Assembly: GCA_965248435.1 (NCBI GenBank)
Contig: OZ252100.1
Span: forward strand, 5,024,001 to 5,088,000
Direction of reading: 5' to 3'
DNA: 64,000 bases
Origin: Candidatus Latescibacterota bacterium
GTDB taxonomy: Bacteria > Latescibacterota > UBA2968 > GCA-2709665
This document shows, piece after piece, positions 3,973-57,168 of this stretch; the first letter of the stretch is position 1; each line of letters opens with the position of its first letter. The notes under the pieces were generated by a model, which made no database searches, had not been told where the DNA came from, and saw nothing but the letters and a program-made list of their open reading frames with translations. Position numbers and translations under genes: made by a program.

Positions 3973-5294
3973 GGTTCATCACCGATTTCCGGGGAAGGCG
4001 TGGCGGATTCTAAGAAAGAAATAATTATCATCCCTGAAGCCATATGCCATCCGCTTGATGACCTTGATTTTGTTGTTAATTCCCTCAATCAGGCTTGTCC
4101 CGATGGGATAGTCACAGTGAGCTAGGATTCCTGGCATATACGTCTTCAGATTGCGTGCGAATTTCTTGAGTGGCTCGATCTTGCTGTAGATGGCGCGTCG
4201 ATACCACTGATTCCAGAATCTGTTGGCCGCAGCTCTGGATCGATAAGACCAGAGATGATTGAGATCCTCTTTGAGGAGGTATACCGTGTAGAGGCGTTTG
4301 TTTGCAGAAAGCAATTCTCTTAGCGACACTCTGTCTTCTTTGCTCGTGACATTTGCTTTGCTGCGCAGGAGCAACCACCGTTGGTTCTGAGTCACTTTGC
4401 GATCGGGTCGGCCACCGCGCACCCGACCCAGTTCGTCGATGCGTACTCGCTCGACGACGTCGCGGTTGTACTTGGCTTTAACGTGATACAGGTCATAGAT
4501 GATGTCCACATCCGGACAATGGGATCGCACCTCCTCTTCGTAGGCACCGTTCATGTCCATCGCCACGGCCTCAAGTTGCTTGCAGCCTTCTTCTCCAAGG
4601 AGGTGGAAAAACGGGCGGATGTCCTCTCGACTTCGGCCGCGACCCACCCATAGGACACGCTTGGTCTCCATGTCAACAATCACTGTGGCGTAGCGATGGC
4701 CCTTTTGGATCGCAAATTCGTCCATGCCGATCACCGTGACCCTGGCAAAATCCGGCGGTTCCAGCTCTTGCTGGAGATGGGTCTTGTGAATGCGCTTCAC
4801 GGTATTCCAGCTCATCCCATAGTGCTGTGCCACGTGCTGGATGGGCAGGACTTCGCACAATCGAACAACACTTTCAGCCAGGCGTTGAGTGACCCGTGAA
4901 TACCGATCCAGCCAGTCAATCTGCTCCGTCCGGCAGCCACATCGGGGACATAGGACGCGCCGGGAGTGCACGATCAGCCTGGTTCGAGACCCCCAGATCG
5001 GCAAATCCTGAGCAAATCGCACTGCCCAATCATGAACCCGGTACGCCTTCTTCCCGCAACCACCACACCGAGGAAGGCGGCCTGTCTTGGGACGTAACTC
5101 GACTCCAACAACGTCTGCTTCCTGACGTTGAATGCCAACTACCACAAACCCTTGCCACCTACCCAGTAAGGATATACTTTGCACCTGAGACAACGCGCTC
5201 TCCTTTCTACCTTCAGGTTTATAGAGGATACTCTGAAGATAGGTCGGATGCCGTTGTCTCGTCTATTTTCTACCCCAACATTTGACGAAGAACC
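3973..5294 (-). mobile_element. ISL3-family insertion sequence, copy 1 (1322 bp)
   Basis: Ends GGTTC..GAACC; 8-bp target duplication TTTACAAA at 3965-3972 and 5295-5302. Confidence 0.95.
3979..5193 (-). CDS. ISL3 transposase
   Basis: CxxC zinc finger, IGMDEF, AMDM, EGINNKIKVIKRMAYGFR. Confidence 0.95.
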   Translation of the reverse strand: MSQVQSISLLGRWQGFVVVGIQRQEADVVGVELRPKTGRLPRCGGCGKKAYRVHDWAVRFAQDLPIWGSRTRLIVHSRRVLCPRCGCRTEQIDWLDRYSRVTQRLAESVVRLCEVLPIQHVAQHYGMSWNTVKRIHKTHLQQELEPPDFARVTVIGMDEFAIQKGHRYATVIVDMETKRVLWVGRGRSREDIRPFFHLLGEEGCKQLEAVAMDMNGAYEEEVRSHCPDVDIIYDLYHVKAKYNRDVVERVRIDELGRVRGGRPDRKVTQNQRWLLLRSKANVTSKEDRVSLRELLSANKRLYTVYLLKEDLNHLWSYRSRAAANRFWNQWYRRAIYSKIEPLKKFARNLKTYMPGILAHCDYPIGTSLIEGINNKIKVIKRMAYGFRDDNYFFLRIRHAFPGNR

Positions 5295-5496
5295 TTTACA
5301 AAGGGGGGCAGGTTGCTCACGCAGGCGGAGACGCCCCATCGGGGCGTCTCTACGGTGATAGATCGTCTCCGTGCCCTCCTGTTCTTTCTGCTTTTCTCCG
5401 CCTTTTTCCGTGATCCAGCTTTTTTGGATCCAGGGTTTTGCGGTACCCGGTACCCGTGTTTTGGTTTCCCGGTACCCGGTACCCGGTACCCGGTTC

Positions 5497-7413
5497 TCAC
5501 CACGTATTTATCCGATGCCCGTTCCCGTGAAACCAGATCGTGTCGACAACGACGCCGAGGCCGACGCCGGCCAGGAACCCGATGAACATGCCGAGGAAGA
5601 ACGGCGTGGCCTTCCGGTAGTACTCCGGGCCGCCGAGCTTGATCAGGACGGTCCGGATCAGCCAGACGAGGAAGAACGGACAGATGCTGCTCCGCATGGC
5701 CCCCGAGGCGGCGATCGTGAACCCGATCGGATGGATCGGGAAGGTGGGGAGCCGGGTGCGCAGGAAGAAGAGCAGCGCGGTGAACGCGCCGCCCAGCCCC
5801 AGAAACGTCACGCGGTCCCAGTCGGTCCCGAAGTTCTGCTGTAGGCGGCGGCCCGTGAGCGGCCAGATTCCGCCGATGCCGTCGTAGGCGCCCCCGCCGA
5901 AGTTGTAGCTCCCGATCGTGGTGTAACCCTGGTGCAGCGTGAACGTGATCACGACCGCCGCGCCGATCGACGCCCCCGCGAGGATGGCGGGGACGAGGGC
6001 GCGCCGGTAGCGGACCGCCATGGCGGTGCCCAGCCGGGGGATGTGGGCGAGCGCGGTGATGCCGAACGTCTTCGCGTCGCAGAAGAAGGCGTAGGTCAGC
6101 CCGCCCAGGGCGACCGCGCTCGCCGTGCCCAACCCGGTGGTCCCGAACAGGTGCCAGGTGAACGACTGCGCGGTGATCGGTCCGCGGAGATAGATCAGCC
6201 CGCTCTCGACGATGATGCGCGCCAGACCGAGGTAGAGGACGAGGGTGCCGAACCCGAAGGCGAGGAGCGGCCCGAGCGCCATCCCGGCCCGGTTCAGCCA
6301 GAGGCCGGCGTAGAGCACGCAGCCGAGGAACAGCCAGACCGCGGTCCGGTAGGAGAGGAGTTCGCCGGAATCGTCGATCTCGCCCCGCCTCGTGAACGCC
6401 TTCCGAAAGACCGCCCCGAGGTGCGCCCGCGCGACCCAGAGGCCCCAGCCAACGAAAACGATCATCCCGCCGAAGGACTGCCATCCGATCGCGGCGTCGA
6501 ACGAACACCACGGGTCCGGCCCACCGATGTCGAACCCGGTCCGGTTCTGGAAGCCCGCCTGCAGCATGGCCAGGAAGTGAAACAACCAGATGCTGACCAG
6601 GACCTCCGAATTGCAGAAGTAGGCGAAGGCCATGGTCATCGGGTGGATCTTGAGCACGAACCCGGGAAACCCCTTGAACGTCGGAATGCCCTCGCCTCGC
6701 AGGAAGAATCGGGGCAGGTCGGGGACGGAGACGAAGAACCAGGAGAGGATGATCCAGACGATCGCGCCCAGGACGGACCAGAAACCGGCCTGGAAGAGCC
6801 GGGATCGAAGCAGCGTCCGGAGCGTGCCCTGCGAGCCGGAGACGCCGGTGAGCGCCAGCAGGCCGGTCGCGATCGGAAAGGCGAGCCGCTCGTGATCCAT
6901 CCACTGCTTGCGGAGGATGATGGCGATGCAGACGTTCGCGAGCAAGATCGCGGCCAGGAAGCCGCTCCACCAGAAGAACGGGACGATCCAGGGCCGCCAC
7001 GGGAGGTCGGCCCCCTCGGGCAGACTCTCGTAGAACCCCACGATGGCCGGTTTGTCGGAGACGATCGTCCAGTCCGGGATGTGGGGGAGCAGGAACTCCT
7101 CCCACTGGCTCTCCGCGGTCGCGAAGTAGAGCGGGTGCGTGATGACGGGGAGGAAGTAATCGGAGAGCCACTCGCCCTGTATGTTGCCGGCGACCATCCC
7201 GATGCAGCAGACGGTGAGGAGCTCGGAGGGTGAAAGGCCGCGGCGACCGAGCAGCAGGTTGAGACCGAGCAGGCAGATGAACGGGACGAGAAAGGCGACG
7301 GAGATGTGCGCGAAGTCGGCGCGTGACGAACGGACGACCAGGTTGGCGTAGGGGATCCAGAGGTTGGCCAGGGCGGCGATGGCGAGGCCGAGGAGGAGGG
7401 AACGCTTCGTCAT
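5497..7413 (-). CDS. Polytopic membrane protein, DUF6785/DUF6784-like putative transporter
   Basis: Many hydrophobic segments; RKQWxxxERLxFP and PIHPIG motifs. Confidence 0.75.
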   Translation of the reverse strand: MTKRSLLLGLAIAALANLWIPYANLVVRSSRADFAHISVAFLVPFICLLGLNLLLGRRGLSPSELLTVCCIGMVAGNIQGEWLSDYFLPVITHPLYFATAESQWEEFLLPHIPDWTIVSDKPAIVGFYESLPEGADLPWRPWIVPFFWWSGFLAAILLANVCIAIILRKQWMDHERLAFPIATGLLALTGVSGSQGTLRTLLRSRLFQAGFWSVLGAIVWIILSWFFVSVPDLPRFFLRGEGIPTFKGFPGFVLKIHPMTMAFAYFCNSEVLVSIWLFHFLAMLQAGFQNRTGFDIGGPDPWCSFDAAIGWQSFGGMIVFVGWGLWVARAHLGAVFRKAFTRRGEIDDSGELLSYRTAVWLFLGCVLYAGLWLNRAGMALGPLLAFGFGTLVLYLGLARIIVESGLIYLRGPITAQSFTWHLFGTTGLGTASAVALGGLTYAFFCDAKTFGITALAHIPRLGTAMAVRYRRALVPAILAGASIGAAVVITFTLHQGYTTIGSYNFGGGAYDGIGGIWPLTGRRLQQNFGTDWDRVTFLGLGGAFTALLFFLRTRLPTFPIHPIGFTIAASGAMRSSICPFFLVWLIRTVLIKLGGPEYYRKATPFFLGMFIGFLAGVGLGVVVDTIWFHGNGHRINTW

Positions 7414-7418
7414 GAACC

Positions 7419-7568
7419 CGTATCTCGTATTTCGTATCTCGTATCTCGTGGGCCCGTCATCTCGCGTGTTTCTTGATCTCGCAGAATTCGTGTCCTATTT
7501 GCCATTCGACGAGATACGTTTCACGAGATACGCTCTTTCCGAGATACGCTTCACGAGATACGAGATGC
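7419..7568. repeat. Inverted heptamer tandem-repeat hairpin (CGTATCT)n..(AGATACG)n
   Basis: About four CGTATCT units at 7419-7449 and several GAGATAC units at 7511-7567; same heptamer at 3894-3908 and 13643-13668. Confidence 0.8.
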
Positions 7569-9062: not shown

Positions 9063-10384
9063 GGTTCTTCGTCAAATGTTGGGGTAGAAAATAGACGAGA
9101 CAACGGCATCCGACCTATCTTCAGAGTATCCTCTATAAACCTGAAGGTAGAAAGGAGAGCGCGTTGTCTCAGGTGCAAAGTATATCCTTACTGGGTAGGT
9201 GGCAAGGGTTTGTGGTAGTTGGCATTCAACGTCAGGAAGCAGACGTTGTTGGAGTCGAGTTACGTCCCAAGACAGGCCGCCTTCCTCGGTGTGGTGGTTG
9301 CGGGAAGAAGGCGTACCGGGTTCATGATTGGGCAGTGCGATTTGCTCAGGATTTGCCGATCTGGGGGTCTCGAACCAGGCTGATCGTGCACTCCCGGCGC
9401 GTCCTATGTCCCCGATGTGGCTGCCGGACGGAGCAGATTGACTGGCTGGATCGGTATTCACGGGTCACTCAACGCCTGGCTGAAAGTGTTGTTCGATTGT
9501 GCGAAGTCCTGCCCATCCAGCACGTGGCACAGCACTATGGGATGAGCTGGAATACCGTGAAGCGCATTCACAAGACCCATCTCCAGCAAGAGCTGGAACC
9601 GCCGGATTTTGCCAGGGTCACGGTGATCGGCATGGACGAATTTGCGATCCAAAAGGGCCATCGCTACGCCACAGTGATTGTTGACATGGAGACCAAGCGT
9701 GTCCTATGGGTGGGTCGCGGCCGAAGTCGAGAGGACATCCGCCCGTTTTTCCACCTCCTTGGAGAAGAAGGCTGCAAGCAACTTGAGGCCGTGGCGATGG
9801 ACATGAACGGTGCCTACGAAGAGGAGGTGCGATCCCATTGTCCGGATGTGGACATCATCTATGACCTGTATCACGTTAAAGCCAAGTACAACCGCGACGT
9901 CGTCGAGCGAGTACGCATCGACGAACTGGGTCGGGTGCGCGGTGGCCGACCCGATCGCAAAGTGACTCAGAACCAACGGTGGTTGCTCCTGCGCAGCAAA
10001 GCAAATGTCACGAGCAAAGAAGACAGAGTGTCGCTAAGAGAATTGCTTTCTGCAAACAAACGCCTCTACACGGTATACCTCCTCAAAGAGGATCTCAATC
10101 ATCTCTGGTCTTATCGATCCAGAGCTGCGGCCAACAGATTCTGGAATCAGTGGTATCGACGCGCCATCTACAGCAAGATCGAGCCACTCAAGAAATTCGC
10201 ACGCAATCTGAAGACGTATATGCCAGGAATCCTAGCTCACTGTGACTATCCCATCGGGACAAGCCTGATTGAGGGAATTAACAACAAAATCAAGGTCATC
10301 AAGCGGATGGCATATGGCTTCAGGGATGATAATTATTTCTTTCTTAGAATCCGCCACGCCTTCCCCGGAAATCGGTGATGAACC
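9063..10384 (+). mobile_element. ISL3-family insertion sequence, copy 2 (1322 bp)
   Basis: Inverted copy of 3973-5294 with identical transposase; flanks TTCGTAAA and TTGCTAAA differ. Confidence 0.95.
9164..10378 (+). CDS. ISL3 transposase
   Basis: Same 404-aa protein as 3979-5193. Confidence 0.95.
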   Translation: MSQVQSISLLGRWQGFVVVGIQRQEADVVGVELRPKTGRLPRCGGCGKKAYRVHDWAVRFAQDLPIWGSRTRLIVHSRRVLCPRCGCRTEQIDWLDRYSRVTQRLAESVVRLCEVLPIQHVAQHYGMSWNTVKRIHKTHLQQELEPPDFARVTVIGMDEFAIQKGHRYATVIVDMETKRVLWVGRGRSREDIRPFFHLLGEEGCKQLEAVAMDMNGAYEEEVRSHCPDVDIIYDLYHVKAKYNRDVVERVRIDELGRVRGGRPDRKVTQNQRWLLLRSKANVTSKEDRVSLRELLSANKRLYTVYLLKEDLNHLWSYRSRAAANRFWNQWYRRAIYSKIEPLKKFARNLKTYMPGILAHCDYPIGTSLIEGINNKIKVIKRMAYGFRDDNYFFLRIRHAFPGNR

Positions 10385-11381: not shown

Positions 11382-11540
11382 TGTCATCCCGAGGAGCCTT
11401 CAAGTCATTGCATTGATCCGAAAGACTTAGAGCAACCGGCGACGAGGGATCTCAAGAGCTTGTTACTCAGTGAATCTTCTCGTGATGTCACAGCTGCTGC
11501 ATTGCCTGCTGAGATTCCTCGCTGACGCTCGGAATGACAA
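11382..11540 (+). repeat. TGTCAT..ATGACA palindromic miniature element, copy 1
   Basis: TGTCATCCCGAG..CTCGGAATGACA ends; related copy inverted at 60587-60745. Confidence 0.85.
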
Positions 11541-11610
11541 AATGGAGCGCTGGGTGATCTGCATTTCATTCCCCAATCCCAAATCCGCAATCCGCAATTA
11601 GATGACTTTC

Positions 11611-12919: not shown

Positions 12920-13105
12920 ATCCTACTCTCTTGCTCGCCCAAGAAAAGTTGGACAAGAGAAGGGCGCCCTTCAGGCGCCGGGGAGGCTGACTTTTCCGCG
13001 AACCGTCCCAGTGGCCCTAGAGATGTTTGTGTCCTTGGATCTTTTGTGTTGTCCATAAACGGGAGTGCTTGACGGATAAGCGCGGAAAAGTCCCACCCCA
13101 CCCCA
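12920..13105 (+). repeat. Family A variant with an alternative closing stem and interior
   Basis: Same 5' hairpin and leader; GACTTTTCCGCG 12989-13000 pairs with CGCGGAAAAGTC 13081-13092; 3' part recurs at about 375-440. Confidence 0.75.
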
Positions 13106-13585: not shown

Positions 13586-13779
13586 TCAGTGAGCCTTTTC
13601 GCGGTGAACACGTCGCATAGTGAATTGGGAAGGTGCCTCTGACGAGATACGAGATACGAGATACGATACCAAGGTACCCGGTACCCGAACCCCGGTACCC
13701 GGTTTTTCCCGAACGACGATCCTGTCGTGTCCCACAGGACACAACCTGAGACGATCGACGAACGACGGCTTTTTGGGGG

Positions 13780-22994: not shown

Positions 22995-23250
22995 GGGTAC
23001 CGGGAAACCAAAACACGGGTACCGGGTACCGGAAAACTGTCGTTCGCATACCCTATCTAATCGCGTGTGGCACGGGCGGCTTGTCCGCCCGTGGAAAACG
23101 ACTCACTTTTTGAATCACAAAACACGTTCATCACTACCCACCGGCAGCAAGCTGCCGGTGCCACACCACCTACTTTGCTTGATCAACTTCAAGCTGATTC
23201 CGGAGCTCAATCAATTGCCCGCGATCGACGAACGACGATCAACGATCCAC
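22995..23250. repeat. Repeat mosaic: GGTACC element, GTGGCAC REP pair and heptamer run
   Basis: GGGTACCGGGAAACCAAAACACGGGTACCGGGTACCG 22995-23031; GTGGCAC 23067 to GTGCCAC 23164. Confidence 0.75.
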
Positions 23251-32045: not shown

Positions 32046-32153
32046 GACTTCGCCAAACGCGTCGCAAACACGGGTACCGGGGTTCAGGTACCGGGTACCG
32101 TAGAACGATCGAATTTCCATTTCCGAAATCCGCAATTTCGTAAAGGGCTTTGA

Positions 32154-35717: not shown

Positions 35718-35798
35718 GGTTGGAAGTCGAGCGTTTCAGGACTGTAGGTGTTTCGCTGTTGGCCAACCGTGGTTTCGCAAGACGGAGGAAGCGTCTGT

Positions 35799-38138
35799 AT
35801 GTCTGATACACAAGAAAGGGAGAGCCTGGAACTGGAGCCGGAAGGGGATCAAGCCCCTGAGGCGGTTCGTACGCGCTCCGAAGATGCCCTAAAGGCACTT
35901 GACGAAAGCGAGTACTCAGACGAAGAGTTCGAAGAGATGATGGGTCTCTACGAAGACACGCTGCAAAACATCAAGGAAGGCGAAATCGTCAACGGAACCG
36001 TCCTCGCCATCGACGAAAACGGTGTTGTCGTGGATATCGGATTCAAGTCAGAGGGTTCGATTCCCGTGTCTGAGTTCACCGACCCTTCGGAAATCGAGGT
36101 CGGCCAGGAGATCGAGGTCTACCTGGAGACCGTCGAAGATAACGAAGGCCAGATCGTCCTGTCCAAGCAGAAGGCCGATTTCATGCGGGTCTGGGATCGG
36201 ATCAAGGAGGCCTACGATAACGATCAGATCATAGAGGGGCGTCTGGTGCGCCGAATCAAGGGCGGGATCGTCGTCGACTTGTTCGGCGTGGACGCTTTTC
36301 TTCCCGGCTCCCAGATCGATATCAAACAGGTCAAAAACTTCGACCAGTTCATCAACGAGGTTTTTCCGTTCCGCATCATCAAACTGAACAAGGCCAGGCG
36401 GAACATCGTCGTATCCCGACGCGTGGTTCTTGAAGAGGAGCGGGCACGGCTCCGCAAGCAAATTCTCGAAACGCTGGAGGTCGGGCAGATTCGAGAGGGA
36501 GTCGTCAAGAATATCACTGACTTTGGAGCGTTCATCGACCTGGGCGGCCTGGACGGCTTGCTCCACATCACGGATATCTCCTGGGGACGCGTCGGGCATC
36601 CTTCCGAGGCCCTGGGCATCGGAGACCAGTTGCAGGTGAAGGTCCTGAATTACGACGAGGAGAGAGAGCGCATCTCCCTGGGGATGAAGCAGCTCACACC
36701 GCATCCCTGGGAAGAAATCGACGAAAAGTACGTGGTAGACACACGCGTCATGGGCCGGGTCGTCAGCATCACGGACTACGGCGCCTTTGTGGAACTGGAA
36801 CGCGGGGTTGAGGGGCTTGTTCATATATCTGAAATGTCCTGGACCCAGCATATCCGGCATCCTTCAAAAATCCTGACGATCGACGATGAGGTCGAGGTCC
36901 TTATCCTCAACGTGGACAAGGAAGGCCAGAAGATCTCACTCGGTTTGAAGCAGGTGACGCCCGATCCCTGGCTGACGCTGGATGAAAAATACCCGCCCGG
37001 GAAGAGGATGAACGGCAGGGTGCGAAATCTAGTGAATTTCGGCGCATTCGTGGAGATCGAGGAGGGCATCGACGGTCTCGTTCACATTTCAGACATGTCG
37101 TGGACGAAGCGTATCCGGCACCCCAGCGAGATCGTCCAGAAGGCCGATGAAGTAGAGGTTGTCGTCCTCAGCGTCGACAAGAGTCGCAGACGCATATCCC
37201 TCGGCCTTAAACAGACCCTCGAGAATCCGTGGGCGGAACTCGCGGTTCGCTACGCCGTGGGCCAACAGACGCACGGCAAAATCACGAGGCTTCTCGAGCG
37301 CGGCGTCGTCGTCGATCTGGAAGGGGATGTGGAGGGATTCGTACCCGTGTCACAGGTCGGCATTCCCGACCTGAAGCATCCCCAGAGTCATTTCTCCGAA
37401 GGGGACGACCTGCCGATGAAGGTCGTGGAATTCGACGAAGAGCAGAGGAAGATCGTCCTGAGTGTTCGGGAGTATCTACGCGATGCCGAGCAGGCAGAAG
37501 TGAATGAATACATCGAAAGTCACAAGGCGCGCCCGGTGACCGTCCAGGAGTTCGTGGCCGAGGATGCGGAAGGCGATGCCTGGGGGGGTGTGGGAACATC
37601 CGCGCCCGATGCTGGGACCGGGGGTGACGTCGCTGAGGAAGGAACCACTGAGGTCGAAGTCGCGGTCGGTGATGAGGCAGATCAGGAAAGCGACGTCGTC
37701 TCCGCCGAACCGTCTGCCGAGGACGCAGGAGACACCGAGGGTCCGCAGGCCGCCGATGAATCCGCATCAGACGTGTTCGCTGAGGAAGGAAGCGCCGGGG
37801 TCGACGTCGCGGTCGGTGATGAGGCAGATCAGGCGAGCGATGCAGTCTCTGATGAAACGTCCGCCGGTCCCGAGGCTTTGGCACCCGCCGTGTCCGATGA
37901 AGTGGCGGTCGGCGATGAGGCCGATCAGGCGAGCGATGCAGTCTCTGATGAAACGTCCGCAGGTCCCGAGGCTTTGGCGCCCACCGTGTCCGATGAAGTG
38001 GCGGTCGGCGGAACAGAGGAAGTGGCGGAGTCGTCTGAAACTTCTGAACCTGACGCCGCGGAAGAGGAATTCAAATCGGATGATGAGGGGGAAGAGAACG
38101 GACCCGCGGCCGAGAGGGAGGATGAACCTCAGGCGTGA
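35799..38138 (+). CDS. rpsA: 30S ribosomal protein S1 with long acidic C-terminal extension
   Basis: Six S1 domains (DIGFKSEG, AFLPGSQID, DGLLHITD) plus an Asp/Glu-rich tail. Confidence 0.96.
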   Translation: MSDTQERESLELEPEGDQAPEAVRTRSEDALKALDESEYSDEEFEEMMGLYEDTLQNIKEGEIVNGTVLAIDENGVVVDIGFKSEGSIPVSEFTDPSEIEVGQEIEVYLETVEDNEGQIVLSKQKADFMRVWDRIKEAYDNDQIIEGRLVRRIKGGIVVDLFGVDAFLPGSQIDIKQVKNFDQFINEVFPFRIIKLNKARRNIVVSRRVVLEEERARLRKQILETLEVGQIREGVVKNITDFGAFIDLGGLDGLLHITDISWGRVGHPSEALGIGDQLQVKVLNYDEERERISLGMKQLTPHPWEEIDEKYVVDTRVMGRVVSITDYGAFVELERGVEGLVHISEMSWTQHIRHPSKILTIDDEVEVLILNVDKEGQKISLGLKQVTPDPWLTLDEKYPPGKRMNGRVRNLVNFGAFVEIEEGIDGLVHISDMSWTKRIRHPSEIVQKADEVEVVVLSVDKSRRRISLGLKQTLENPWAELAVRYAVGQQTHGKITRLLERGVVVDLEGDVEGFVPVSQVGIPDLKHPQSHFSEGDDLPMKVVEFDEEQRKIVLSVREYLRDAEQAEVNEYIESHKARPVTVQEFVAEDAEGDAWGGVGTSAPDAGTGGDVAEEGTTEVEVAVGDEADQESDVVSAEPSAEDAGDTEGPQAADESASDVFAEEGSAGVDVAVGDEADQASDAVSDETSAGPEALAPAVSDEVAVGDEADQASDAVSDETSAGPEALAPTVSDEVAVGGTEEVAESSETSEPDAAEEEFKSDDEGEENGPAAEREDEPQA

Positions 38139-41601: not shown

Positions 41602-42054
41602 CTAGACGCCGAGACGCGTAGCTACGAAGTTTATTGCTCGATTACTGGATCCAGCAAATGCCGCGGTTTCAGGATCGAACCTGTATCCCTCCCTGGTGGG
41701 TCTGACTTCTACGACCCCCTGGGGTGCGAAAAAGCTCACTCGGTACTCCCCGTTCACATTGGTCAAGGTGCGTCTTGTTTCCGCGACGGGATCGACGATT
41801 GTCATGGTTATGGCCACGTCAGGAACTCTCGTTTCAACAGAATTACGGTACTCGACCACAGTACCTGTGATCGCCCAATGTTGGCTTTCGGTGGAGTCAG
41901 AATGGGAACTATTTGGGCTTTCACAGCCACTCCCGCCCGTACTTCCACCGCCACCTGAACTTTTACTTTGAGTCTGGCAGTTTACGATCAGGAGCATTCC
42001 AAACAGGAAGGGAATCCCCAGTCTGAACGTGCGATTGAGCCTCGAGTTTGTCAT
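41602..42054 (-). CDS. Putative lipoprotein, paralog 3 (carboxypeptidase-regulatory-like beta domain)
   Basis: LIVNC lipobox-like, GGSGC, VEVRPTREGYRFDP, INFVA. Confidence 0.75.
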   Translation of the reverse strand: MTNSRLNRTFRLGIPFLFGMLLIVNCQTQSKSSGGGGSTGGSGCESPNSSHSDSTESQHWAITGTVVEYRNSVETRVPDVAITMTIVDPVAETRRTLTNVNGEYRVSFFAPQGVVEVRPTREGYRFDPETAAFAGSSNRAINFVATRLGV

Positions 42055-42075
42055 CTTTCAGTCCTCCCTGGAATG

Positions 42076-42495
42076 CTAACCGCCAGTCCGCGAAGCCGTA
42101 AAGTTTACCCCCCCGCGAGGACGTCCACGATAGACCGTGGGATTGAATCTGTATCCCTCCCTTGATGGCCGGACTTCCACCGAGTTCACACCCCCGACGT
42201 GCAACCGGAAATTTCCGCCGCCGTTGGTCTTGACCTTGAGGATGTTGCTTGCGGCCGCTTGTGGATTGATGATCACGGACAGAGTAACGTCGGGCACGTT
42301 CGTTACGACACCATTGCGGGACTCGAACACGGTTCCACTGACCACCGTTTGAACATGTGGGGTTTGTGTCGGGGCCACGGGACTTGCGCAGCCGCTCCCA
42401 CTTCCGCCCTCAGATACGCAGTTGACGACCAGCATCATCCCGAAGAGGATCGGGATCCCCGTTCTGAGCGTGCGGTTGAACCTGGAGTTAGTCAT
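42076..42495 (-). CDS. Putative lipoprotein, paralog 2
   Basis: LVVNC, GSGC, VEVRPSREGYRFNP, VNFTA. Confidence 0.75.
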   Translation of the reverse strand: MTNSRFNRTLRTGIPILFGMMLVVNCVSEGGSGSGCASPVAPTQTPHVQTVVSGTVFESRNGVVTNVPDVTLSVIINPQAAASNILKVKTNGGGNFRLHVGGVNSVEVRPSREGYRFNPTVYRGRPRGGVNFTASRTGG

Positions 42496-42517
42496 TTCTT
42501 AACTCCCATCGAGACTG

Positions 42518-42964
42518 CTAGACGCCAGAGCGCGAAGCTGTAAAGTTCAGGGCCTGGCTGGGAGGTCCCCGAAAGACTTCAGGATCGAACCTGTATCCCG
42601 CCTTTGTCGGCCTGACTTCTACCTCCCCTGCCCGTGGGCTGAGTTCCAGCCGGAACTGTCCGTTGATGTCGGTCTTGACCGTCATTACGTTCAGGACCCG
42701 GGGTTTGGTCCCGTAAGATTGATGCGTTTTGACTGTAACCGTCACGGCGACGCCGGGAACTTTCGTCTTGCCGGAACCTTGGGACTCGATTATGGCACCG
42801 CCGACCACCTTGGGTCTTGGGGCTCCGCCTCCTTGAGACATATTCGGCATCTCGCAGCCGCTCCCGCCTTTGCTTCCCTCCGACGCGCAGTTCACGACCA
42901 GCATCATTCCGAACAGGAAAGGGATGGTCATTCTCAACGCTCGATTGGATCCTGGATTCGTCAT
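42518..42964 (-). CDS. Putative lipoprotein, paralog 1
   Basis: LVVNC, GGSGC, VEVRPTKAGYRFDP, LNFTA. Confidence 0.75.
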   Translation of the reverse strand: MTNPGSNRALRMTIPFLFGMMLVVNCASEGSKGGSGCEMPNMSQGGGAPRPKVVGGAIIESQGSGKTKVPGVAVTVTVKTHQSYGTKPRVLNVMTVKTDINGQFRLELSPRAGEVEVRPTKAGYRFDPEVFRGPPSQALNFTASRSGV

Positions 42965-43029
42965 CTCTGACCTCCCAGTTTTCGGACTTAGTTTCGATCA
43001 AAGAATCTATCTCTCTACCCGGTCTCCAT

Positions 43030-43045
43030 TGCAAGCCCCGTGCCG
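43030..43045 (-). promoter_or_regulatory. Sigma-54-type -24/-12 promoter
   Basis: Minus strand CGGCACGGGGCTTGCA (GG-N10-GC), about 65 bp upstream of 42964. Confidence 0.65.
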
Positions 43046-43490
43046 CTTCAGTGAATCCGTTCTTTGAATGCTTTTAAGGGTAATATTTACAATGGTATAG
43101 GAGGGTATTTCGGACGGCCGTGTCTCTGAATCCTGGTATCTGGAAGACTGCATAGACTTGCGCTTCTTTGCGCGAAGCTTCGCGAGATGGCATAGCGTCG
43201 CTTTCGGAATAGGTTTTGGTGAAGGGCTCGATCTCATATCGCGTCGCCCCCAGCGAACAAGGAATTTCCTCTACCCAATCTCCGAGGATCCGCTATATTC
43301 CTTCCAGGCGCCTCTAGCTGGAGTTGCCTCGTTTCATCCAGTGGTTGCAGCGGGCGCTGACCTCTCCCTCGCTGAAGAACACACCGAACTCTCCTCCATA
43401 GATCCTGTCCATTCGAAGCCACGCAGGCCTTTGACCCCGATCCGTTCATCGGAGTTCAATGGTCTCAAGTGTCAGCCTTGTCCCGAATCC

Positions 43491-43961
43491 ATGATCTCGA
43501 TCGATCGCGCCGAGCCCTCAGATTTTCTGGCCATCGCCCATCTGGATCGCATCGCCTGGCTGAAGTATCCTCAATCCGAGTTCATCCCGGACGGCGAACA
43601 CGTCTGGCGGCTCTGGGTCGAGCACGCGTTCGTCTACTGCGCCAGGGAGGCGGACAGTATCGTCGGGGCGGTCCTCGTCTTTCCGACGTTGACCGGACCG
43701 TTCTGCCTCCACAAGGCTTTTGTGGCAGAGGAACACCGGGGGAAAGGGATCGGGACGAAGCTGATCGACGCCGTCCTGTCGGAGGTGGATGATGCGGGAG
43801 GGGACTGTTTTCTGACTGTCAACCCCTCCAACGAGGCGGCGCTGCGGCTTTACGAGTCCTGGGGGTTCACGGAGCGGAAGTTTGTGGCCGGGTTCTACCG
43901 GGAACAGGAGGATCGGTTCGTGCTCACGCGCAGGGCCGCGAACGGGCGCGGGGCCGAATGA
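43491..43961 (+). CDS. GNAT N-acetyltransferase
   Basis: HRGKGIGTKL, NEAALRLYESWGF. Confidence 0.9.
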   Translation: MISIDRAEPSDFLAIAHLDRIAWLKYPQSEFIPDGEHVWRLWVEHAFVYCAREADSIVGAVLVFPTLTGPFCLHKAFVAEEHRGKGIGTKLIDAVLSEVDDAGGDCFLTVNPSNEAALRLYESWGFTERKFVAGFYREQEDRFVLTRRAANGRGAE

Positions 43962-44590
43962 TACTGTTCGTCGCGATCTTCATTCCGGCCGTACTGCTGC
44001 TGCAGGCCAACCCCTTCGCCCTGTTCGAGGCGGGCCGCTTCGAAGCGGCCAGGGCAGGCTTCGAGCGCCGGCTGGAGACCCGTCCGAACGACCCGGAGGC
44101 GCTTTACTTTCTTGGACGGCTTTCACCATCAGGGGCGGTGTCCAGGGGCTTCTTCGAAAGGCTGCTGGCGGCACACCCGAAGCACGCGCTGGCGGATGAC
44201 GCCCTTTTCGAGCTGGCCGAGGCCGACTACGGCGGGGGACAGGGGCTCTACCTCACGGCCCGGCGCCGTTATCGACGCCTTCTGTCTTCCTATCGCGACA
44301 GCCCCCTGGCGCCGCGGGCCCACTACAGAGTCGGGCTGACCTTTCTGATCACCCGGAAGCCAGACTCCGCGGCCGTCGCGTTCAGGGCCGTGCTGGACCG
44401 GTTCCCGAGGTCTGATGTCAGGGCGCTTGCCCACCTCGGCATCGTGGACGCGAACGTCCAGGGGAATCACAGGGAAGCGGCGCTGCGGGAGGCGGAGGCC
44501 TTGCTGGCCAGTGATCCGGAAGGGATAAGAGAGATTGTGGAGGAGCGCATTCGACGGTTGAAATACGCCAGCGCTGGGGGAATGGAGTAA
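43958..44590 (+). CDS. TPR protein, CpoB/BamD-like
   Basis: Signal peptide, LADDALFELA and LAPRAHYRVG repeats. Confidence 0.75.
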   Translation: MILFVAIFIPAVLLLQANPFALFEAGRFEAARAGFERRLETRPNDPEALYFLGRLSPSGAVSRGFFERLLAAHPKHALADDALFELAEADYGGGQGLYLTARRRYRRLLSSYRDSPLAPRAHYRVGLTFLITRKPDSAAVAFRAVLDRFPRSDVRALAHLGIVDANVQGNHREAALREAEALLASDPEGIREIVEERIRRLKYASAGGME

Positions 44591-44770
44591 TGGAGTATTG
44601 GAGTAATGGGAAACAAGAATCCGGAGTATTGGAGATTTGGAAAACTATGGCCGAATGCAGTCCGTTTATCCAACACTCCATCATTCCAGTACTGTCATAC
44701 TACAGAATCCCAGAGCCCGTAGCTTGACGAACAGCAATGAGGAATGGAGTAATTTGGATTGATGGAATAC
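44583..44770. repeat. Octamer TGGAGTA(A/T) tandem repeats and inverted copies upstream of the four-helix-bundle gene
   Basis: Forward units 44583-44640, inverse 44669-44694, forward 44741-44770. Confidence 0.8.
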
Positions 44771-45337
44771 ACTACTTTCAGAAATAAAAACCGCGGGTAC
44801 ATGAAGTTGGAGGTCTGGCAGAAGTCGATGGAACTTTTCGACTTTACATGGAGATTGGTTAAGAATTCAGATGTCGACCTCAGGCTTCGGTCACAGATTT
44901 ACGGTTCTGTTCAATCAATTTCGGCGAATATCGCTGAAGGGTATTCTCGTCGTACCGTGAACGATTATCTGAGGTTTCTGTACATATCTCTTGGTTCATT
45001 GTCGGAATCCCTGACGAGGCTGGCTGGCCTGAAGGAAACGGGTCAGATCTCAAGCTCGCAGTTCGAAGAAATAGACAAGCTCCACTACGAGGTCGAAAAC
45101 AAGCTTTTGAGGCTCGTGCAGTCGCTTGAAAACAAGAAAGATGAAGGGTCTTGGATGGACCGAATTTCAGAAGAGGAGGAAATATATATCCCGGGTTCTG
45201 AGAGTCTAGAACTGGATAAGGAGAGTAATGAGAACGCAGACGTTCCAATACTCCAACACTCCAGTACTGCAATACTCCAGAGTCGGGCAGCTGAAAAGCT
45301 GGTAACAGGGGATTGGAGTAAGCGAGGTAATGGATAG
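44762..45337 (+). CDS. Four-helix-bundle protein (23S rRNA IVP/TIGR02436-like)
   Basis: KLEVWQKSM, SISANIAEG, FLYISLGSLSE. Confidence 0.9.
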   Translation: MEYTTFRNKNRGYMKLEVWQKSMELFDFTWRLVKNSDVDLRLRSQIYGSVQSISANIAEGYSRRTVNDYLRFLYISLGSLSESLTRLAGLKETGQISSSQFEEIDKLHYEVENKLLRLVQSLENKKDEGSWMDRISEEEEIYIPGSESLELDKESNENADVPILQHSSTAILQSRAAEKLVTGDWSKRGNG

Positions 45338-47990
45338 GAAAATAGAAAAAGGAACCACACCGGCCATGGAGCAGTTTCTGGGCTTCAAGGCCGAATACCC
45401 GGACGCCATTCTGCTGTTTCGGATGGGGGACTTCTACGAGACCTTCTACGATGACGCGGTGGAGGCGTCCCACCTGCTGGGCCTGACCCTGACCGCACGC
45501 AACAACGGCCGTACGGACAAGGTGCCCATGGCCGGGGTTCCCCATCATGCCGTGGACGCCTATCTCGCCCGGTTGATCAAGGCCGGAAAGAAGGTGGCCA
45601 TATGCGAGCAGATGGAGCCGCCCCAGGCAGGAAAAAAGATCGTGCGTCGTGAAGTCGTTCAGGTGGTCTCTCCAGGCACGGCACTTTCAGAGAACCTGCT
45701 GGATCAGAGGAGAAACAACTACCTCGCAGCGCTCTGTCTCCTGGATGACCGGGTGGGTCTGGCCGTGATCGATCATTCGACGGGCGCCTTCCGGGTGTCG
45801 GAGGACAGCCCCGACCGCCTCTGGGAGGCGCTGCAGAGCGTCGATCCGGCCGAGATCGTCGCGCCGGAGTCCTGGGCGGAGGCCAACGAAACATTGTGTC
45901 TCCAGAAGTTGCCCGGTGCTGTTCTGAGCGGTTACGAGGAGTGGACCTTCAGTTACAACTACGCCTACGATGCCCTTCGGGAGCAGTTTCGAGTCTCCTC
46001 CCTCAAAGGGTTCGACTGCGAGGATTTGAAGGCGGGGATCTGCGCGGCGGGTGGAGCGGTCGCATATCTCAAGCGAAACCAAAAGGGCGAGCTTTCTCAC
46101 CTTACCCGCATGTCCCGGGAACGTACAGGGGTCTCGATGACCCTGGATCTGGTGACCCAGCGGAATCTGGAGCTGATTACGTCCATTCAGGAGCATCGAC
46201 GAGATGGCACGCTGCTTTCCGTGTTGGACAGAACGGGCACCTCTATGGGTGCTCGAATGATCCGAACCTGGCTGACCGCCCCTCTGTTGGAGATCTCCAG
46301 GATCGACGCTCGGCTGGACGCAGTGGAGGAATTCGTTCAGGCACCGGCGTTGAGAGCTGCAGTTCGTGAGGGGCTTCGAGACGTGGGGGATCTGGAGCGA
46401 CTGATGTCCAGGGTCTGCTGCGGCCGAGCCAATCCCCGGGACGTGGCGGGGCTGAAGACGTCGGTGCTTGCCCTGCCGCCCCTTCGGGATGCGCTCCAGG
46501 AGGCCTGTTCCCGGCTGCTGAAAACGATACGGGAAGCGGAGATGCCCGACCTGGGGCGGCTCGCCGATCTGATCGACCAAACGCTGGCAGAGGAGCCCCC
46601 AGCTACGCTGAGCGATGGGGGAATCATCCGGAAGGGTTTGAACGCGGATCTGGATGAGCTCAGGGAAGTGGCCTCGGGCGGGCGATCGTGGGTCGCCGCC
46701 CTGCAGACCCAGGAACGCAAGCGAACGGGTATTCCTTCATTGAAAGTGGGCTACAACAGGGCATTCGGATATTACATCGAGGTGACGAAGGCGAACGCAG
46801 ATCGCGCGCCGAGCGACTACATCCGAAAACAGACCCTGGTGAATGCCGAAAGGTATATCACGCCCGAGCTGAAAGACTGGGAGGCCAGGATCCTGGGGGC
46901 CGACGATCGGGCGAAGGAGCTTGAAAAGGAGCTGTTTCTCCAGTTGATACAGAAAATCGCGGGATGGGTCGAGGCTGTTCAGTGGAACGCCCGGAGCGTG
47001 GCCAGGGTGGATGTCCTGGCTTCGCTGGCAGAGGTGGCTGCGTTGAACGACTATGTCCGTCCGACCGTTGTGGAGGATAAAGTCATCCAGATCGATGCGG
47101 GCCGTCATCCGGTCGCGGAACAGCTCTTGCCCGACGGGAAGTTCGTGCCGAACGATGTCCTCGTGGACGCGCAGCAGGCGCAGATCCTGATCATCACCGG
47201 TCCGAACATGGCCGGGAAGTCGACGATCCTGCGCCAGGTCGGTCTGATCGTGATGATGGCCCAGCTGGGCAGCTTCGTGCCAGCAGCATCGGCGAGGGTG
47301 GGCGTCGTGGACCGGATCTTTACGCGCGTGGGCGCTTCGGACAATCTCGCCGCGGGAGAAAGTACCTTCCTGGTGGAGATGAACGAGGCCGCCAACATCC
47401 TCAACAATGCGACGCCCAGGAGCCTGGTGCTCCTGGATGAGATCGGAAGGGGGACGAGCACCTTCGACGGGTTGAGCATCGCGTGGGCGATGACGGAGCA
47501 CCTGCACAATTCCGCGGGAATCTGTCCACGGACGCTTTTCGCGACCCATTATCACGAGCTTACGGAACTGGAGGAGGTCCTGCCTCGTGTGGTGAATCAG
47601 AGTGTGGCCGTTCGCAAGGTGGGGGATGAGATCGCCTTCCTGCACCGGCTCGTGCCAGGGGGATGTGATCGGAGCTACGGGATCGAGGTCGCACGATTGG
47701 CCGGTATGCCGACCGAACTGATTGCGCGCGCCAAGGAGGTCCTCGCTCGGCTGGAAACGAACGACCTGACGCTGAAGGGCTCGGCTGTCAGCCGCTCACG
47801 ACGTCGGAATGAACGCACCGATCAGATGGGTCTGTTCGCACCGGGCGAGGAACCGCCAGCCCAGCCGGAAGCGCATCTCATCCTGTCGGAACTTCGGGAC
47901 CTGGATATCGGGAACACAACACCTGTCGAGGCCCTGCGAAGGCTGGATGCGTGGAAACGGCAGGTCGATGGGGAAGGAACGAACCCCTAA
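45330..47990 (+). CDS. mutS: DNA mismatch repair protein MutS
   Basis: RMGDFYE, TGPNMAGKST, DEIGRGTST, SYGIEVA. Confidence 0.98.
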   Translation: MDRKIEKGTTPAMEQFLGFKAEYPDAILLFRMGDFYETFYDDAVEASHLLGLTLTARNNGRTDKVPMAGVPHHAVDAYLARLIKAGKKVAICEQMEPPQAGKKIVRREVVQVVSPGTALSENLLDQRRNNYLAALCLLDDRVGLAVIDHSTGAFRVSEDSPDRLWEALQSVDPAEIVAPESWAEANETLCLQKLPGAVLSGYEEWTFSYNYAYDALREQFRVSSLKGFDCEDLKAGICAAGGAVAYLKRNQKGELSHLTRMSRERTGVSMTLDLVTQRNLELITSIQEHRRDGTLLSVLDRTGTSMGARMIRTWLTAPLLEISRIDARLDAVEEFVQAPALRAAVREGLRDVGDLERLMSRVCCGRANPRDVAGLKTSVLALPPLRDALQEACSRLLKTIREAEMPDLGRLADLIDQTLAEEPPATLSDGGIIRKGLNADLDELREVASGGRSWVAALQTQERKRTGIPSLKVGYNRAFGYYIEVTKANADRAPSDYIRKQTLVNAERYITPELKDWEARILGADDRAKELEKELFLQLIQKIAGWVEAVQWNARSVARVDVLASLAEVAALNDYVRPTVVEDKVIQIDAGRHPVAEQLLPDGKFVPNDVLVDAQQAQILIITGPNMAGKSTILRQVGLIVMMAQLGSFVPAASARVGVVDRIFTRVGASDNLAAGESTFLVEMNEAANILNNATPRSLVLLDEIGRGTSTFDGLSIAWAMTEHLHNSAGICPRTLFATHYHELTELEEVLPRVVNQSVAVRKVGDEIAFLHRLVPGGCDRSYGIEVARLAGMPTELIARAKEVLARLETNDLTLKGSAVSRSRRRNERTDQMGLFAPGEEPPAQPEAHLILSELRDLDIGNTTPVEALRRLDAWKRQVDGEGTNP

Positions 47991-48353
47991 GAACCGGGTA
48001 CCGGGATAGGTAGATAGGTTACAGAGACCTGACGGTTTGGGGGCGACGCCTGCGTCGCCCCGGGAAATCAAGACACGGGTACCGGGTACCGCAAGGCCTG
48101 AAAGCCATTCAATTGCGGATTGCGGATTTGGGATTGGCGATTGAAAGGCTGTCCCCTCCTTGGAGGAGTGCCCGGTTCGCAGTTCACAGGGGATAGCTGC
48201 GGCACGATGTAAGCAGGGGGCGGGGTGGGTAATTTGGCGAGCGGAAATGAATCAGGGGTCCGACGACATAATGTCGGGCCCCTTTGTCGTTCCTCGAATC
48301 TGAACGTTGTTCATCGTGCGGTCGGCGGTCGGCCGTCCGCGGTCTGCCCTTGG

Positions 48354-54503: not shown

Positions 54504-55045
54504 ATGCCGGGTACCGGGAAATCAAAACACGGGTATCGGGTACCGCAAAACCGGGCATCTTGGATCGTGATTCGTAATCGAAACTACTCGCGATCTAAAT
54601 GACCCGTAGGGGCAGGCCTCCGCGCCTGCCCTTAAATCTTTCACCAAGTAAATGACACCCCCGGTACCCGGTACCGGAATGCCGGGTACCGGGAAACCAA
54701 AACACGGGTATCGGGTACCGCAAAACCAGGCATCTTGGATCGTGATTCGTAGTCGAAACTAGCCGCGATCTAAATGACCTGTAGGGGCAGGCCTCCGCGC
54801 CTGCCCTTAAATCTTTCACCAAGTAAATGACACCCCCGGTACCCGGTACCCAGAATGCCGGGTACCGGGAAATCAAAACACGGGTATCGGGTACCGCAAA
54901 ACCGGGCATCTTGGATCGTGATTCGTAATCGAAACTACTCGCGATCTAAATGACCCGTAGGGGCAGGCCTCCGCGCCTGCCCTTAAATCTTTCACCAAGT
55001 AAATGACACCCCACGGTACCCGGTACCCGAACCCCGGTACCCGGT
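54504..55045. repeat. Three tandem 175-176 bp mosaic units (BIME-like)
   Basis: Units start at 54504, 54679 and 54855; each holds a GGTACC element and the REP GTAGGGGCAGGCCTCCGCGCCTGCCCT. Confidence 0.9.
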
Positions 55046-56982: not shown

Positions 56983-57168
56983 CCGTTCATCAATTGCGGA
57001 TTGCGGACCGAACTTGCCGCCGCACGGCTTGACCATCAGAGTCCTGGCGCCGGACCCACCCCTAAATCCCCTCCAAGGAGGGGACTTTCGTATTCACTGA
57101 GTTTACCCACATGGTCACTCAAAATCCCCTCCTGGGAGGGGTGCCCCGCAGGGGTGGGGTGGGTTCTA

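Follow-up and report, generated by a model that had tools for sequence, protein, structure and literature searches.

The stretch of DNA analysed here, 64,000 nucleotides from the genome of a Candidatus Latescibacterota bacterium (hereafter the window), carries on its forward strand a gene for a four-helix-bundle protein, IVP, which lies between a TPR gene and mutS and is bracketed by tandem arrays of 8-nt units in opposite orientations. The upstream neighbour is an open reading frame (ORF) with Pfam TPR matches at 43958–44590 (+), the final codons and TAA stop of which (44588–44590) sit within the first octamers of a forward array at 44583–44645 (+). This array is composed of the units TGGAGTAA, TGGAGTAT and TGGAGTAA followed by degenerate units; the exact TGGAGTA(A/T) octamers begin at 44583, 44591 and 44599, the degenerate units run on to approximately 44645, and Tandem Repeats Finder (TRF) reports 3.6 copies with a period of 8 at 44581–44609. 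An inverse array at 44669–44709 (+) pairs with it as a hairpin enclosing no gene. A second forward array (44739–44770, +) continues into the start codon of the IVP gene (44762–45337, +; 191 codons; matches to PF05635 and TIGR02436), for which ATG 44762 was preferred to TTG 44759 because homologues open with M(S)EYT. The second inverse array, closing the cassette at 45244–45284 (+; TRF 45244–45279, period 8, 4.5 copies), lies inside the 3' end of the IVP ORF and is followed at 45308–45337 (+) by extra forward units, GGGGATTGGAGTAA ... TAATGGATAG. These contain both the ATG of mutS (45330–47990, +; five MutS domains) and the TAG stop of the IVP ORF (45335–45337), which thereby overlaps the mutS start; GGGGATTGGAGTAA at 45308–45321 repeats GGGGAATGGAGTAA at 44577–44590, and a single forward unit occupies 45314–45321. 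A first-pass annotation had described a more AT-rich four-helix-bundle gene at this junction, a gene-less hairpin of octamers and an inverse block upstream of it, a forward block bearing its start codon, a closing inverse block, a first octamer supplying the upstream stop codon and an ORF reading through the closing repeats into the mutS start, and each of these features is present.

The inverse block of the hairpin (44669–44709) is a 41-nt direct copy of 45244–45284, with 83% identity, and the closing arm of the cassette (36 nt) is 81% complementary to 44574–44609. The hairpin folds at -48.5 kcal/mol (z -3.57), a stability that none of 200 shuffles equalled, and we read 44583–44709 as an apparent miniature or decayed copy beside the full one. 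TGGAGTA occurs nine times in the window and seven of these matches fall within 738 bases (44583–45320), whilst shuffled sequences gave a mean of 2.98 (standard deviation 1.69) and reached nine or more in none of 100 cases. The G+C content of 44591–45329 is 45.6%, against 59.1% for the window, a value below that of every other one of the 1266 overlapping 740-nt stretches. Rfam gave zero matches at E <= 1 in 44300–45600, and the units, being 8 nt long and set head to tail without spacers, do not constitute a CRISPR array.

The distribution of this arrangement was examined by a scan in which an alignment of 52 relatives served as the query and each species was represented by a single genome; 312 stretches were matched, 249 were confirmed and the best 80 were kept, the window's own genome not being included among them. 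These best 80 loci come from Bacteroidota, Ignavibacteriota, Verrucomicrobiota, Planctomycetota, Acidobacteriota, Calditrichota, Marinimicrobia, KSB1, Kryptoniota, Gemmatimonadota, Deferribacteres and Alphaproteobacteria. Over the 156 nt preceding the gene the density of TGGA....TGGA is 18.07 per kb, and over the 250 nt past the conserved domain that of TCCA....TCCA is 12.35 per kb, as against 0.08 per kb for each motif in the remaining 1.13 Mb, an enrichment of approximately 200-fold; motifs in the wrong orientation beside the gene are found at 0.48 and 0.40 per kb. Where the full flanks are available, in loci from at least ten phyla, both arrays are present in 67 of 75, one side only in eight and neither in none. 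The earlier proposal that gene and repeats form one unit, and its corollary that such repeats should be enriched around homologues, are therefore upheld, the enrichment being overwhelming and the distant members of the family behaving likewise.

A motif-free test was also applied, in which TRF arrays with a period of 6–9 were sought on both sides of the gene and their consensus units compared for reverse complementarity. Two-sided arrays were found in 61 of 78 loci, inverted at up to two mismatches in 57 and at up to one mismatch in 39; random pseudo-genes placed in the same loci gave two-sided arrays in 3 of 730 cases and inverted ones in none. The unit consensus is T-G-G-A-(G 0.49, T 0.38 or A 0.12)-T-(A/G)-N. 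Each side holds a median of four units, and from first to last unit the cassette measures a median of 507 nt (range 444–779). Two contigs of a single Bacteroidota bin (L013 and L015) carry G-type and T-type cassettes, the proteins of which fall in different halves of the tree. As judged from these comparisons, the gene and its arrays are inherited and transferred together; the recurrence of the package in many bacterial phyla means that it behaves like a compact travelling cassette.

It could be argued that the host simply scatters short tandem repeats in its intergenic DNA and that the IVP gene merely happens to lie amongst them, as there are many period-7 arrays in the window with no IVP gene nearby and solitary arrays in the relatives too. 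We regard such a coincidence as highly improbable, since TGGAGTA is confined to the IVP locus (seven of the nine matches), the same unit flanks homologues in other phyla with no inverted arrays at any of the control positions, and two IVP subfamilies found on one contig carry different units.

The last point comes from a subfamily profile run over all ORFs of the loci, which revealed two distant paralogues. One (L071, 8141–8584) has (TGGTATA)n upstream and the complement downstream at 10.3 copies, and the other (L058, 14177–14566) has period-8 units of the GCCAGTT type, with the complement at 11.4 copies. As both contigs also carry TGGAnTnn cassettes, the unit is associated with the gene and not with the host. 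Plasmids searched with tblastn yielded 20 records, mostly cyanobacterial, of which 12 were examined; all hold PF05635 genes, and the proteins of L083 and L091 are the same. Inverted heptamer arrays of GGGAAAA, GGGAACA, GGTGACA, AAAAGCT, GGCAGAA, GGAGTCA, AGGTTCA and GGGTGTG flank the plasmid genes. When the motif-free test was put to the 14 distant genes (the 12 from plasmids and the two paralogues), nine passed at up to one mismatch, one at two mismatches, and four failed (L083, L088, L090 and L091); on visual inspection a short inverted copy can be made out in L088, a downstream array alone in L083 and L091, and no array in L090. Pairs of proteins that are 72, 74 and 80% identical, from different cyanobacterial orders, have near-identical units, whilst pairs below 50% identity do not. 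Across these genes the sequence of the unit tracks the lineage of the protein and not that of the host. The idea that supplying stop codons is the purpose of the units was considered and rejected as a general rule: it is true of units of the TGGAGTAA type and not of the cyanobacterial GGGAACA or GGGTGTG.

Copies of the arrays also exist away from intact genes. Outside the IVP zones of the loci there are 81 clusters of units, of which 40 are strong, and gene-less hairpins consisting of a forward array, a loop and an inverse array stand at gene junctions in L028, L042 and L050 (two each), L053, L058, L063 and L069 (two). At L008 8807–8955 a forward array is followed by IVP codons 2–26 (76% identity, E 5e-7) and then by an inverse array, and this is, on the evidence of its sequence, an internally deleted copy of the cassette. 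An alternative account of such structures is that the hairpins arise first, through a different process, and that IVP genes insert into their loops, the gene-less hairpins then being empty targets. Hairpins of this kind are indeed common at gene junctions, and rRNA intervening sequences extend existing helices and sit in the loops of helices 25 and 45. We nevertheless think this order of events unlikely, for the units follow the protein lineage across hosts, the L008 hairpin retains the first 25 IVP codons, and the right arm of the window hairpin copies the right arm of the cassette to a point past the limits of the units.

In 50 kb of an Anabaena plasmid, two of nine arrays of period 6–9 lie within the IVP-bearing cas operon, one at the flank of the gene and one at the next junction. 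With most of the arrays away from the IVP gene, the link runs from gene to arrays and not the reverse, and the use of arrays as predictors of IVP genes was dropped. In L015, solitary forward arrays of the TGGA type (11389–11477 and 12960–13025) stand either side of an unrelated 500-aa ORF; the second array encodes the C-terminal ...IDGGME of this ORF and provides its stop, just as the window TPR gene draws its end from an array of its own.

The window protein matches PF05635 (E 7.5e-23; 81.2 bits against a cut-off of 33.8; residues 16–116) and TIGR02436 (83.1 bits against a cut-off of 24); PF05635 is its sole Pfam match and the bAvd-like Pfam model is not reached. The conserved part comprises codons 1–146 (44762–45199), and codons 147–191 form a read-through tail that translates the inverse array. 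In an AF2 model helices are predicted at residues 16–34, 40–61, 66–92 and 98–128, where the pLDDT is mostly above 90, whilst residues 146–191 have a pLDDT below 50 and are disordered. Foldseek comparison of the model gave TM-scores of 0.90 to 2gsc, 0.87 to 2rld, 0.84 to Avd (4dwl) and 0.80–0.82 to the Avd chains of the diversity-generating retroelement (DGR) ribonucleoprotein (8ub7, 0.80), at a sequence identity between IVP and Avd of 12%. Both the family membership and the Avd-like fold, as previously suggested, are thus confirmed. To our knowledge this very large family has two solved structures, has no known catalytic domain and has a known function in the Avd branch only.

A protein search returned 938 relatives at E <= 0.001 from 1178 candidates, with a best non-self match of 65% identity and a typical length of 146 aa. 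In an alignment of 15 relatives the longer ones end in tails such as PILQYSNTPILQYS, because an array of (TACTCCAA)n gives exactly such residues on translation. S52, N56 and E59 are invariant among 52 sequences, fitting the SxxxNxxE part of the family motif GxxRxxxSxxxNxxE reported by Zhang and Ye (2013); the spacing of G and R differs in the subfamily of the window protein. In two clades that share an insertion site, dN/dS is 0.079 (with usable dS in 104 of 435 pairs) and 0.072 (10 of 10 pairs), and these ratios show the protein to be under purifying selection. Synonymous sites are near saturation (dS 0.6–1.8) while the arrays stay recognisable.

Relatives of IVP and of Avd crystallise with five chains: the entries 2gsc and 2rld have five apiece, and Xcc0516 is cited as a homopentamer in a paper on the Coxiella intervening sequence (IVS). 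In the DGR ribonucleoprotein all five Avd protomers contact one stem-loop via flipped-out bases, which lie in the clefts where protomers adjoin, the same residues making the contact in different protomers. It might be supposed from this fold (TM-score 0.84 to 4dwl, 0.80 to 8ub7), and from the weak bAvd-like Pfam matches of two cyanobacterial relatives, that the gene is an Avd which has lost its reverse transcriptase and its template and variable repeats. This is the least probable of the explanations we considered, given that reverse-transcriptase domains were found in none of the 57 window ORFs scanned and in none of 55 neighbour representatives at E <= 1e-12, that the window protein matches PF05635 only, and that the repeats are 8-nt tandem units with no template/variable pair, nothing of that kind having appeared in a repeat search confined to 44400–45500. 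A true DGR does occur on the Anabaena plasmid (L093 3006–4502), with the avd gene beside a reverse transcriptase gene; a period-9 array, TTCATCCTG, of 4.4 copies lies between the two, and none was detected on the other side of avd.

The cassettes fit exactly between neighbouring operon genes and run in the same direction, as the coordinates show. A co-oriented upstream ORF ends a median of 8 nt before the first unit (within 12 nt in 46 of 71 loci, with seven overlapping), and a co-oriented downstream ORF starts a median of 18 nt past the last unit. By crude ORF calling, both neighbours are on the same strand as IVP in 50 of 81 loci; among eight representatives of the opposite-strand neighbour families seven have no Pfam match at E <= 1e-12 and are probably shadow ORFs, and L006 has one real convergent neighbour. 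The stop codon of IVP lies within or past the inverse array in 38 of 78 loci. In the window, the + strand of the insert showed no promoter-like site, and 43000–46000 was free of terminator-like sites.

ABC ATPase and permease genes are the neighbours in 34 loci, 30 of which are a single orthologous site in a Chthoniobacterales-type clade. The remaining neighbour pairs are diverse: FtsX/FtsX, xanthine dehydrogenase subunits, two ABC permeases, transketolase/RpiB, thiolase/3-hydroxyacyl-CoA dehydrogenase, AcrB/AcrB, SufB/ABC-type ATPase, KdsB/CTP synthase and PS decarboxylase/CDP-alcohol phosphatidyltransferase (Pfam CDP-OH_P_transf), along with AAA-family ATPase/ParB and cas6/cas4 on plasmids. 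The last pair is found in the type I-D cas operons of Anabaena sp. 90 (L084, 1204–1572) and Pseudanabaena galeata (L085, 1204–1563), where the IVP gene carries heptamer arrays, and a solitary array with the same unit as the IVP arrays lies between cas4 and cas1d on the Anabaena plasmid (L093 37457–37486). IVP genes inside cas loci appear in published reports; these reports fit the insertion habit, and insertions such as those of L084 and L085 may explain the CRISPR association.

The history of the cassette in the window can be judged in part from the proteins on either side of it. Orthologues of the TPR protein (96, 90 and 78% identity) align with it up to ...RRLK (44563), beyond which they end in GEMR, GR and ARRGK where the window protein ends in YASAGGME. 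The nearest MutS (81% identity) begins MEKGTTPAMEQ, its start aligning with ATA 45342 of the window, which places the window ATG 45330 within the unit-like TAATGGAT. The segment from approximately 44564 to 45341 is hence without counterpart in the proteins of relatives. For mutS itself there is a choice between the annotated 874-aa form, from the Met of MEQF (45366), and an 886-aa form from ATG 45330; the conserved EKGTTPA upstream and the start of the nearest relative argue for the latter. Named relatives of this MutS are from Latescibacterota (approximately 53–61% identity) and Gemmatimonadota (54–67%). No IVP more than 65% identical was found in the protein collection that contains the TPR orthologues, suggesting that close relatives probably lack the cassette, and this, taken together with the lowest G+C stretch of the window, points to a recent arrival.

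The best explanation of the whole, which we hold to be fairly probable, is that approximately 44564–45341 represents an inserted, promoterless cassette resembling an IVS, placed at the junction of a TPR/mutS operon. The cassette comprises a forward array of about four 8-nt TGGAnTnn units, the four-helix-bundle IVP gene and a reverse-complement array, the window having a full copy (44739–45284) preceded by a gene-less miniature (44583–44709), with unit-like sequence supplying the stop codon of one neighbour and the ATG taken as the start of mutS. It would be transcribed by read-through from the host operon. The forward units, which offer TAA or TGA, GGAG and ATG, would end translation of the upstream gene and start that of IVP, whilst the inverse units, in the G type, would be largely stop-free, such that the IVP frame often runs to the start of the next gene and translation of the host genes would therefore stay coupled. 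The two arrays could form a long, imperfect and periodic stem around the gene, and IVP, presumed by homology to be a five-fold ring, would bind its own periodic arrays, each subunit taking one unit, in a way resembling the hold of the Avd pentamer on a stem-loop of the DGR ribonucleoprotein. By a rough estimate seven to eight stacked base pairs span approximately 20–27 Å, which is close to the distance between adjacent four-helix bundles in a ring. Such binding could maintain the arrays, control the processing of cassette RNA, or both. That the protein binds the repeats or helps them to spread, as the first-pass annotation had supposed, is an inference consistent with units that track protein lineage, with gene-less hairpins, with the deleted copy and with the solved complex of Avd and RNA.

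A number of observations weigh against this explanation, those on the pairing of the cassette ends among them. The first-pass annotation had these ends pairing in the transcript, and a closing stem does appear: in a fold of 771 nt, 44583–44609 pairs with 45245–45280 and closes the insert in both the minimum-energy and the centroid structures. Across the loci the arms align over a median of 33 nt with 82% complementarity, and score a median of 42 as against 18 in control regions. The fold of the whole insert, however, has a z of -1.96 over 20 shuffles, one of which was equally stable, and further tests gave no sign of selection for pairing. Of the mismatches between the arms, 126 would be G:U in the sense strand and 148 in the antisense strand (p 0.20), which shows no sense bias; counted by locus, G:U favours sense in 19 and antisense in 40 with 20 ties, and most mismatches are transversions (359). 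A locus's own arms (-1.288 kcal/nt) do not differ from unrelated arms of the same type (-1.272 kcal/nt; p 0.34), arms of any unit type giving -1.108 kcal/nt. The unit type, G, T or A at position 5, is concordant between the arms in 61 of 72 loci (r 0.89), with at least 13 changes on the tree, and this concordance is not separable from shared ancestry (nine well-supported branches and three independent pairs, with no trend). Pairing of the ends is thermodynamically possible, and no selection for pairing was detected beyond unit type. What is conserved is the periodic TGGA/TCCA core and its mirror arrangement and not base-by-base complementarity, a pattern no less compatible with repeated recognition sites than with a plain stem.

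The same caution applies to mobility. No transposase, integrase or reverse transcriptase was found in or beside the cassette, either among the window ORFs or in the neighbour families, and visual inspection of 81 junctions revealed no consistent target-site duplication; ATGA occurs on both sides in loci of the L068 type, and the window has a 14-nt near-repeat that could be no more than an additional unit. The approximately 30 Chthoniobacterales-type loci at one site indicate long vertical residence and not recent movement, solitary arrays are also found, some beside other genes, and the absence of the cassette from close relatives is drawn from a collection of proteins. The S23p of Coxiella is reported, moreover, to be probably not made in vivo, and its ORF to be decaying.

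There is a case for the IVP gene as a domesticated regulator, with operator-like arrays through which the protein would tune the stability, processing or translation of the host operon mRNA, and which is kept for the benefit of the host. Strong purifying selection (dN/dS 0.07–0.08), about 30 species with one orthologous site, arrays that remain recognisable despite near-saturated dS (0.6–1.8) and the exact placement at stop/start junctions would all fit with this. On the other hand, dozens of unrelated operons, spread over at least ten phyla, carry the same cassette, its base composition is foreign in the window and close relatives are probably without it, and decayed and gene-less copies exist. 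We consider domestication a possible if rather doubtful account of the whole, whilst noting that it and the mobile-element reading are not mutually exclusive.

The inserted cassette that we favour bears most comparison to the ORF-bearing 23S rRNA IVSs of Leptospira, Coxiella and others, which are regarded as selfish elements. In Coxiella the IVS is 428–444 nt long, contains an S23p ORF, has a terminal stem of 28 bp and is reported to be a substrate of RNase III. The two share the gene family (S23p/PF05635), a similar size (428–444 nt in Coxiella, a median of 507 nt in the cassettes), inverted repeats at the ends that could place the ORF within a stem, a patchy and horizontal distribution and a G+C content below that of the host. 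However, the cassette lies between protein genes of operons, whereas the IVSs occupy rRNA helix 25 or 45; it ends in tandem 7–8-nt arrays instead of the near-perfect 28-bp stem described for the IVS, it has gene-less hairpin derivatives, and purifying selection acts on its protein, the Coxiella ORF being reported as decaying. Because of its location outside rRNA the cassette is not a member of the rRNA IVSs.

Other known systems resemble the cassette in part. REP (repetitive extragenic palindromic) elements and REPINs are associated with RAYT, a single Y1 (HUH) transposase gene with inverted copies of a short element, a palindrome of 20–40 nt, beside it. The cassette is similar in that its gene is flanked by an inverted short element and gene-less hairpins occur in the intergenic DNA of operons, but IVP is no Y1/HUH transposase, only PF05635 having been found in it, and its units are tandem 7–8-mers and not a 20–40-nt palindrome. 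Integron cassettes, too, are ORFs that lack a promoter, run in the direction of their neighbours and have an imperfect palindromic site at their boundary, and here the differences are that no integrase, attC structure or cassette array is seen and that the insertions are scattered in ordinary operons. Unlike an insertion sequence or a miniature inverted-repeat transposable element, the cassette has no transposase domain and no regular target duplication at the junctions inspected. Short tandemly repeated repetitive (STRR) heptamers occur in cyanobacteria, in which IVP genes are flanked by such heptamer arrays, although the IVP arrays enclose a specific gene family as an inverted pair. In Beggiatoaceae the TAACTGA repeats are intergenic tandem heptamers often placed just upstream of start codons (PMC4679880). 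In the literature searched no gene partner is described for the STRR or TAACTGA repeats, PMC4679880 being without the terms S23, intervening, four-helix and IVS, and no paper links PF05635 genes with flanking tandem repeats, older and subscription literature being outside the scope of the search.

There is a substantial chance that the locus is the visible part of a larger and unrecognised system of proteins and periodic repeats. A more far-reaching suggestion, which we offer tentatively, is that PF05635 proteins are the missing partner of 7–8-nt arrays and hairpins, the rings of each subfamily recognising, maintaining and spreading their cognate units in the manner of RAYT but as an unrelated protein that is not of the HUH kind, with rRNA IVSs as one landing site and the cas associations as insertions. 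The hosts of such arrays may then include Cyanobacteria (with heptamers of the STRR type), Bacteroidota, Verrucomicrobiota, the lineage of the window and others. If the gene always travels with cognate inverted arrays, PF05635 gains a concrete and testable nucleic-acid ligand, an origin is offered for short heptamer and octamer tandem arrays, the source of which has so far been unexplained, and 23S rRNA IVSs become one landing site of a wider cassette family; the IVP genes inside cas operons would then be insertions and not Cas components. For annotation, the arrays create false C-terminal extensions in predicted proteins and can supply the stop and start codons of neighbours, which matters for gene calling, as with the 874 versus 886 aa of mutS.

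The window also contains intergenic arrays with a period of 7, belonging to the unit families GGTACCC, CGTATCT (complement GATACG), TTGCGGA (complement CCGCAA) and TTTCGTG, at 464–503, 2044–2116, 2648–2735, 5434–5499, 7417–7562, 11570–11598, 13639–13703, 23016–23032, 32071–32100, 48076–48136, 54504–55045 and 56993–57007. In one of these a forward and an inverse array lie opposed like the arms of a hairpin (7417–7450 and 7510–7562), and another contains a 175-nt unit repeated three times (54504–55028; 95% matches), each copy of which has GGTACC heptamers and a G+C-rich palindrome. None has a neighbouring IVP gene, and it is possible that they are orphans of other IVP subfamilies whose genes lie elsewhere in the genome.

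Elsewhere in the window, two ISL3-family transposase ORFs (3979–5193, -, and 9164–10378, +), both of 404 aa and with identical Pfam scores, lie inverted with respect to each other and enclose DUF6785/DUF6784 and GDP-mannose dehydratase genes in a layout like that of a composite transposon. The gene for ribosomal protein S1 (35748–38138), which has six S1 domains, bears within its C-terminal part a 96-nt tandem duplication (37809–38010; 2.1 copies, 95% matches). Three tandem paralogous small ORFs (41602–42964, -), of 150, 139 and 148 aa, start with MTNSR/MTNPG...NR, and two of the three have weak CarboxypepD_reg-like matches.

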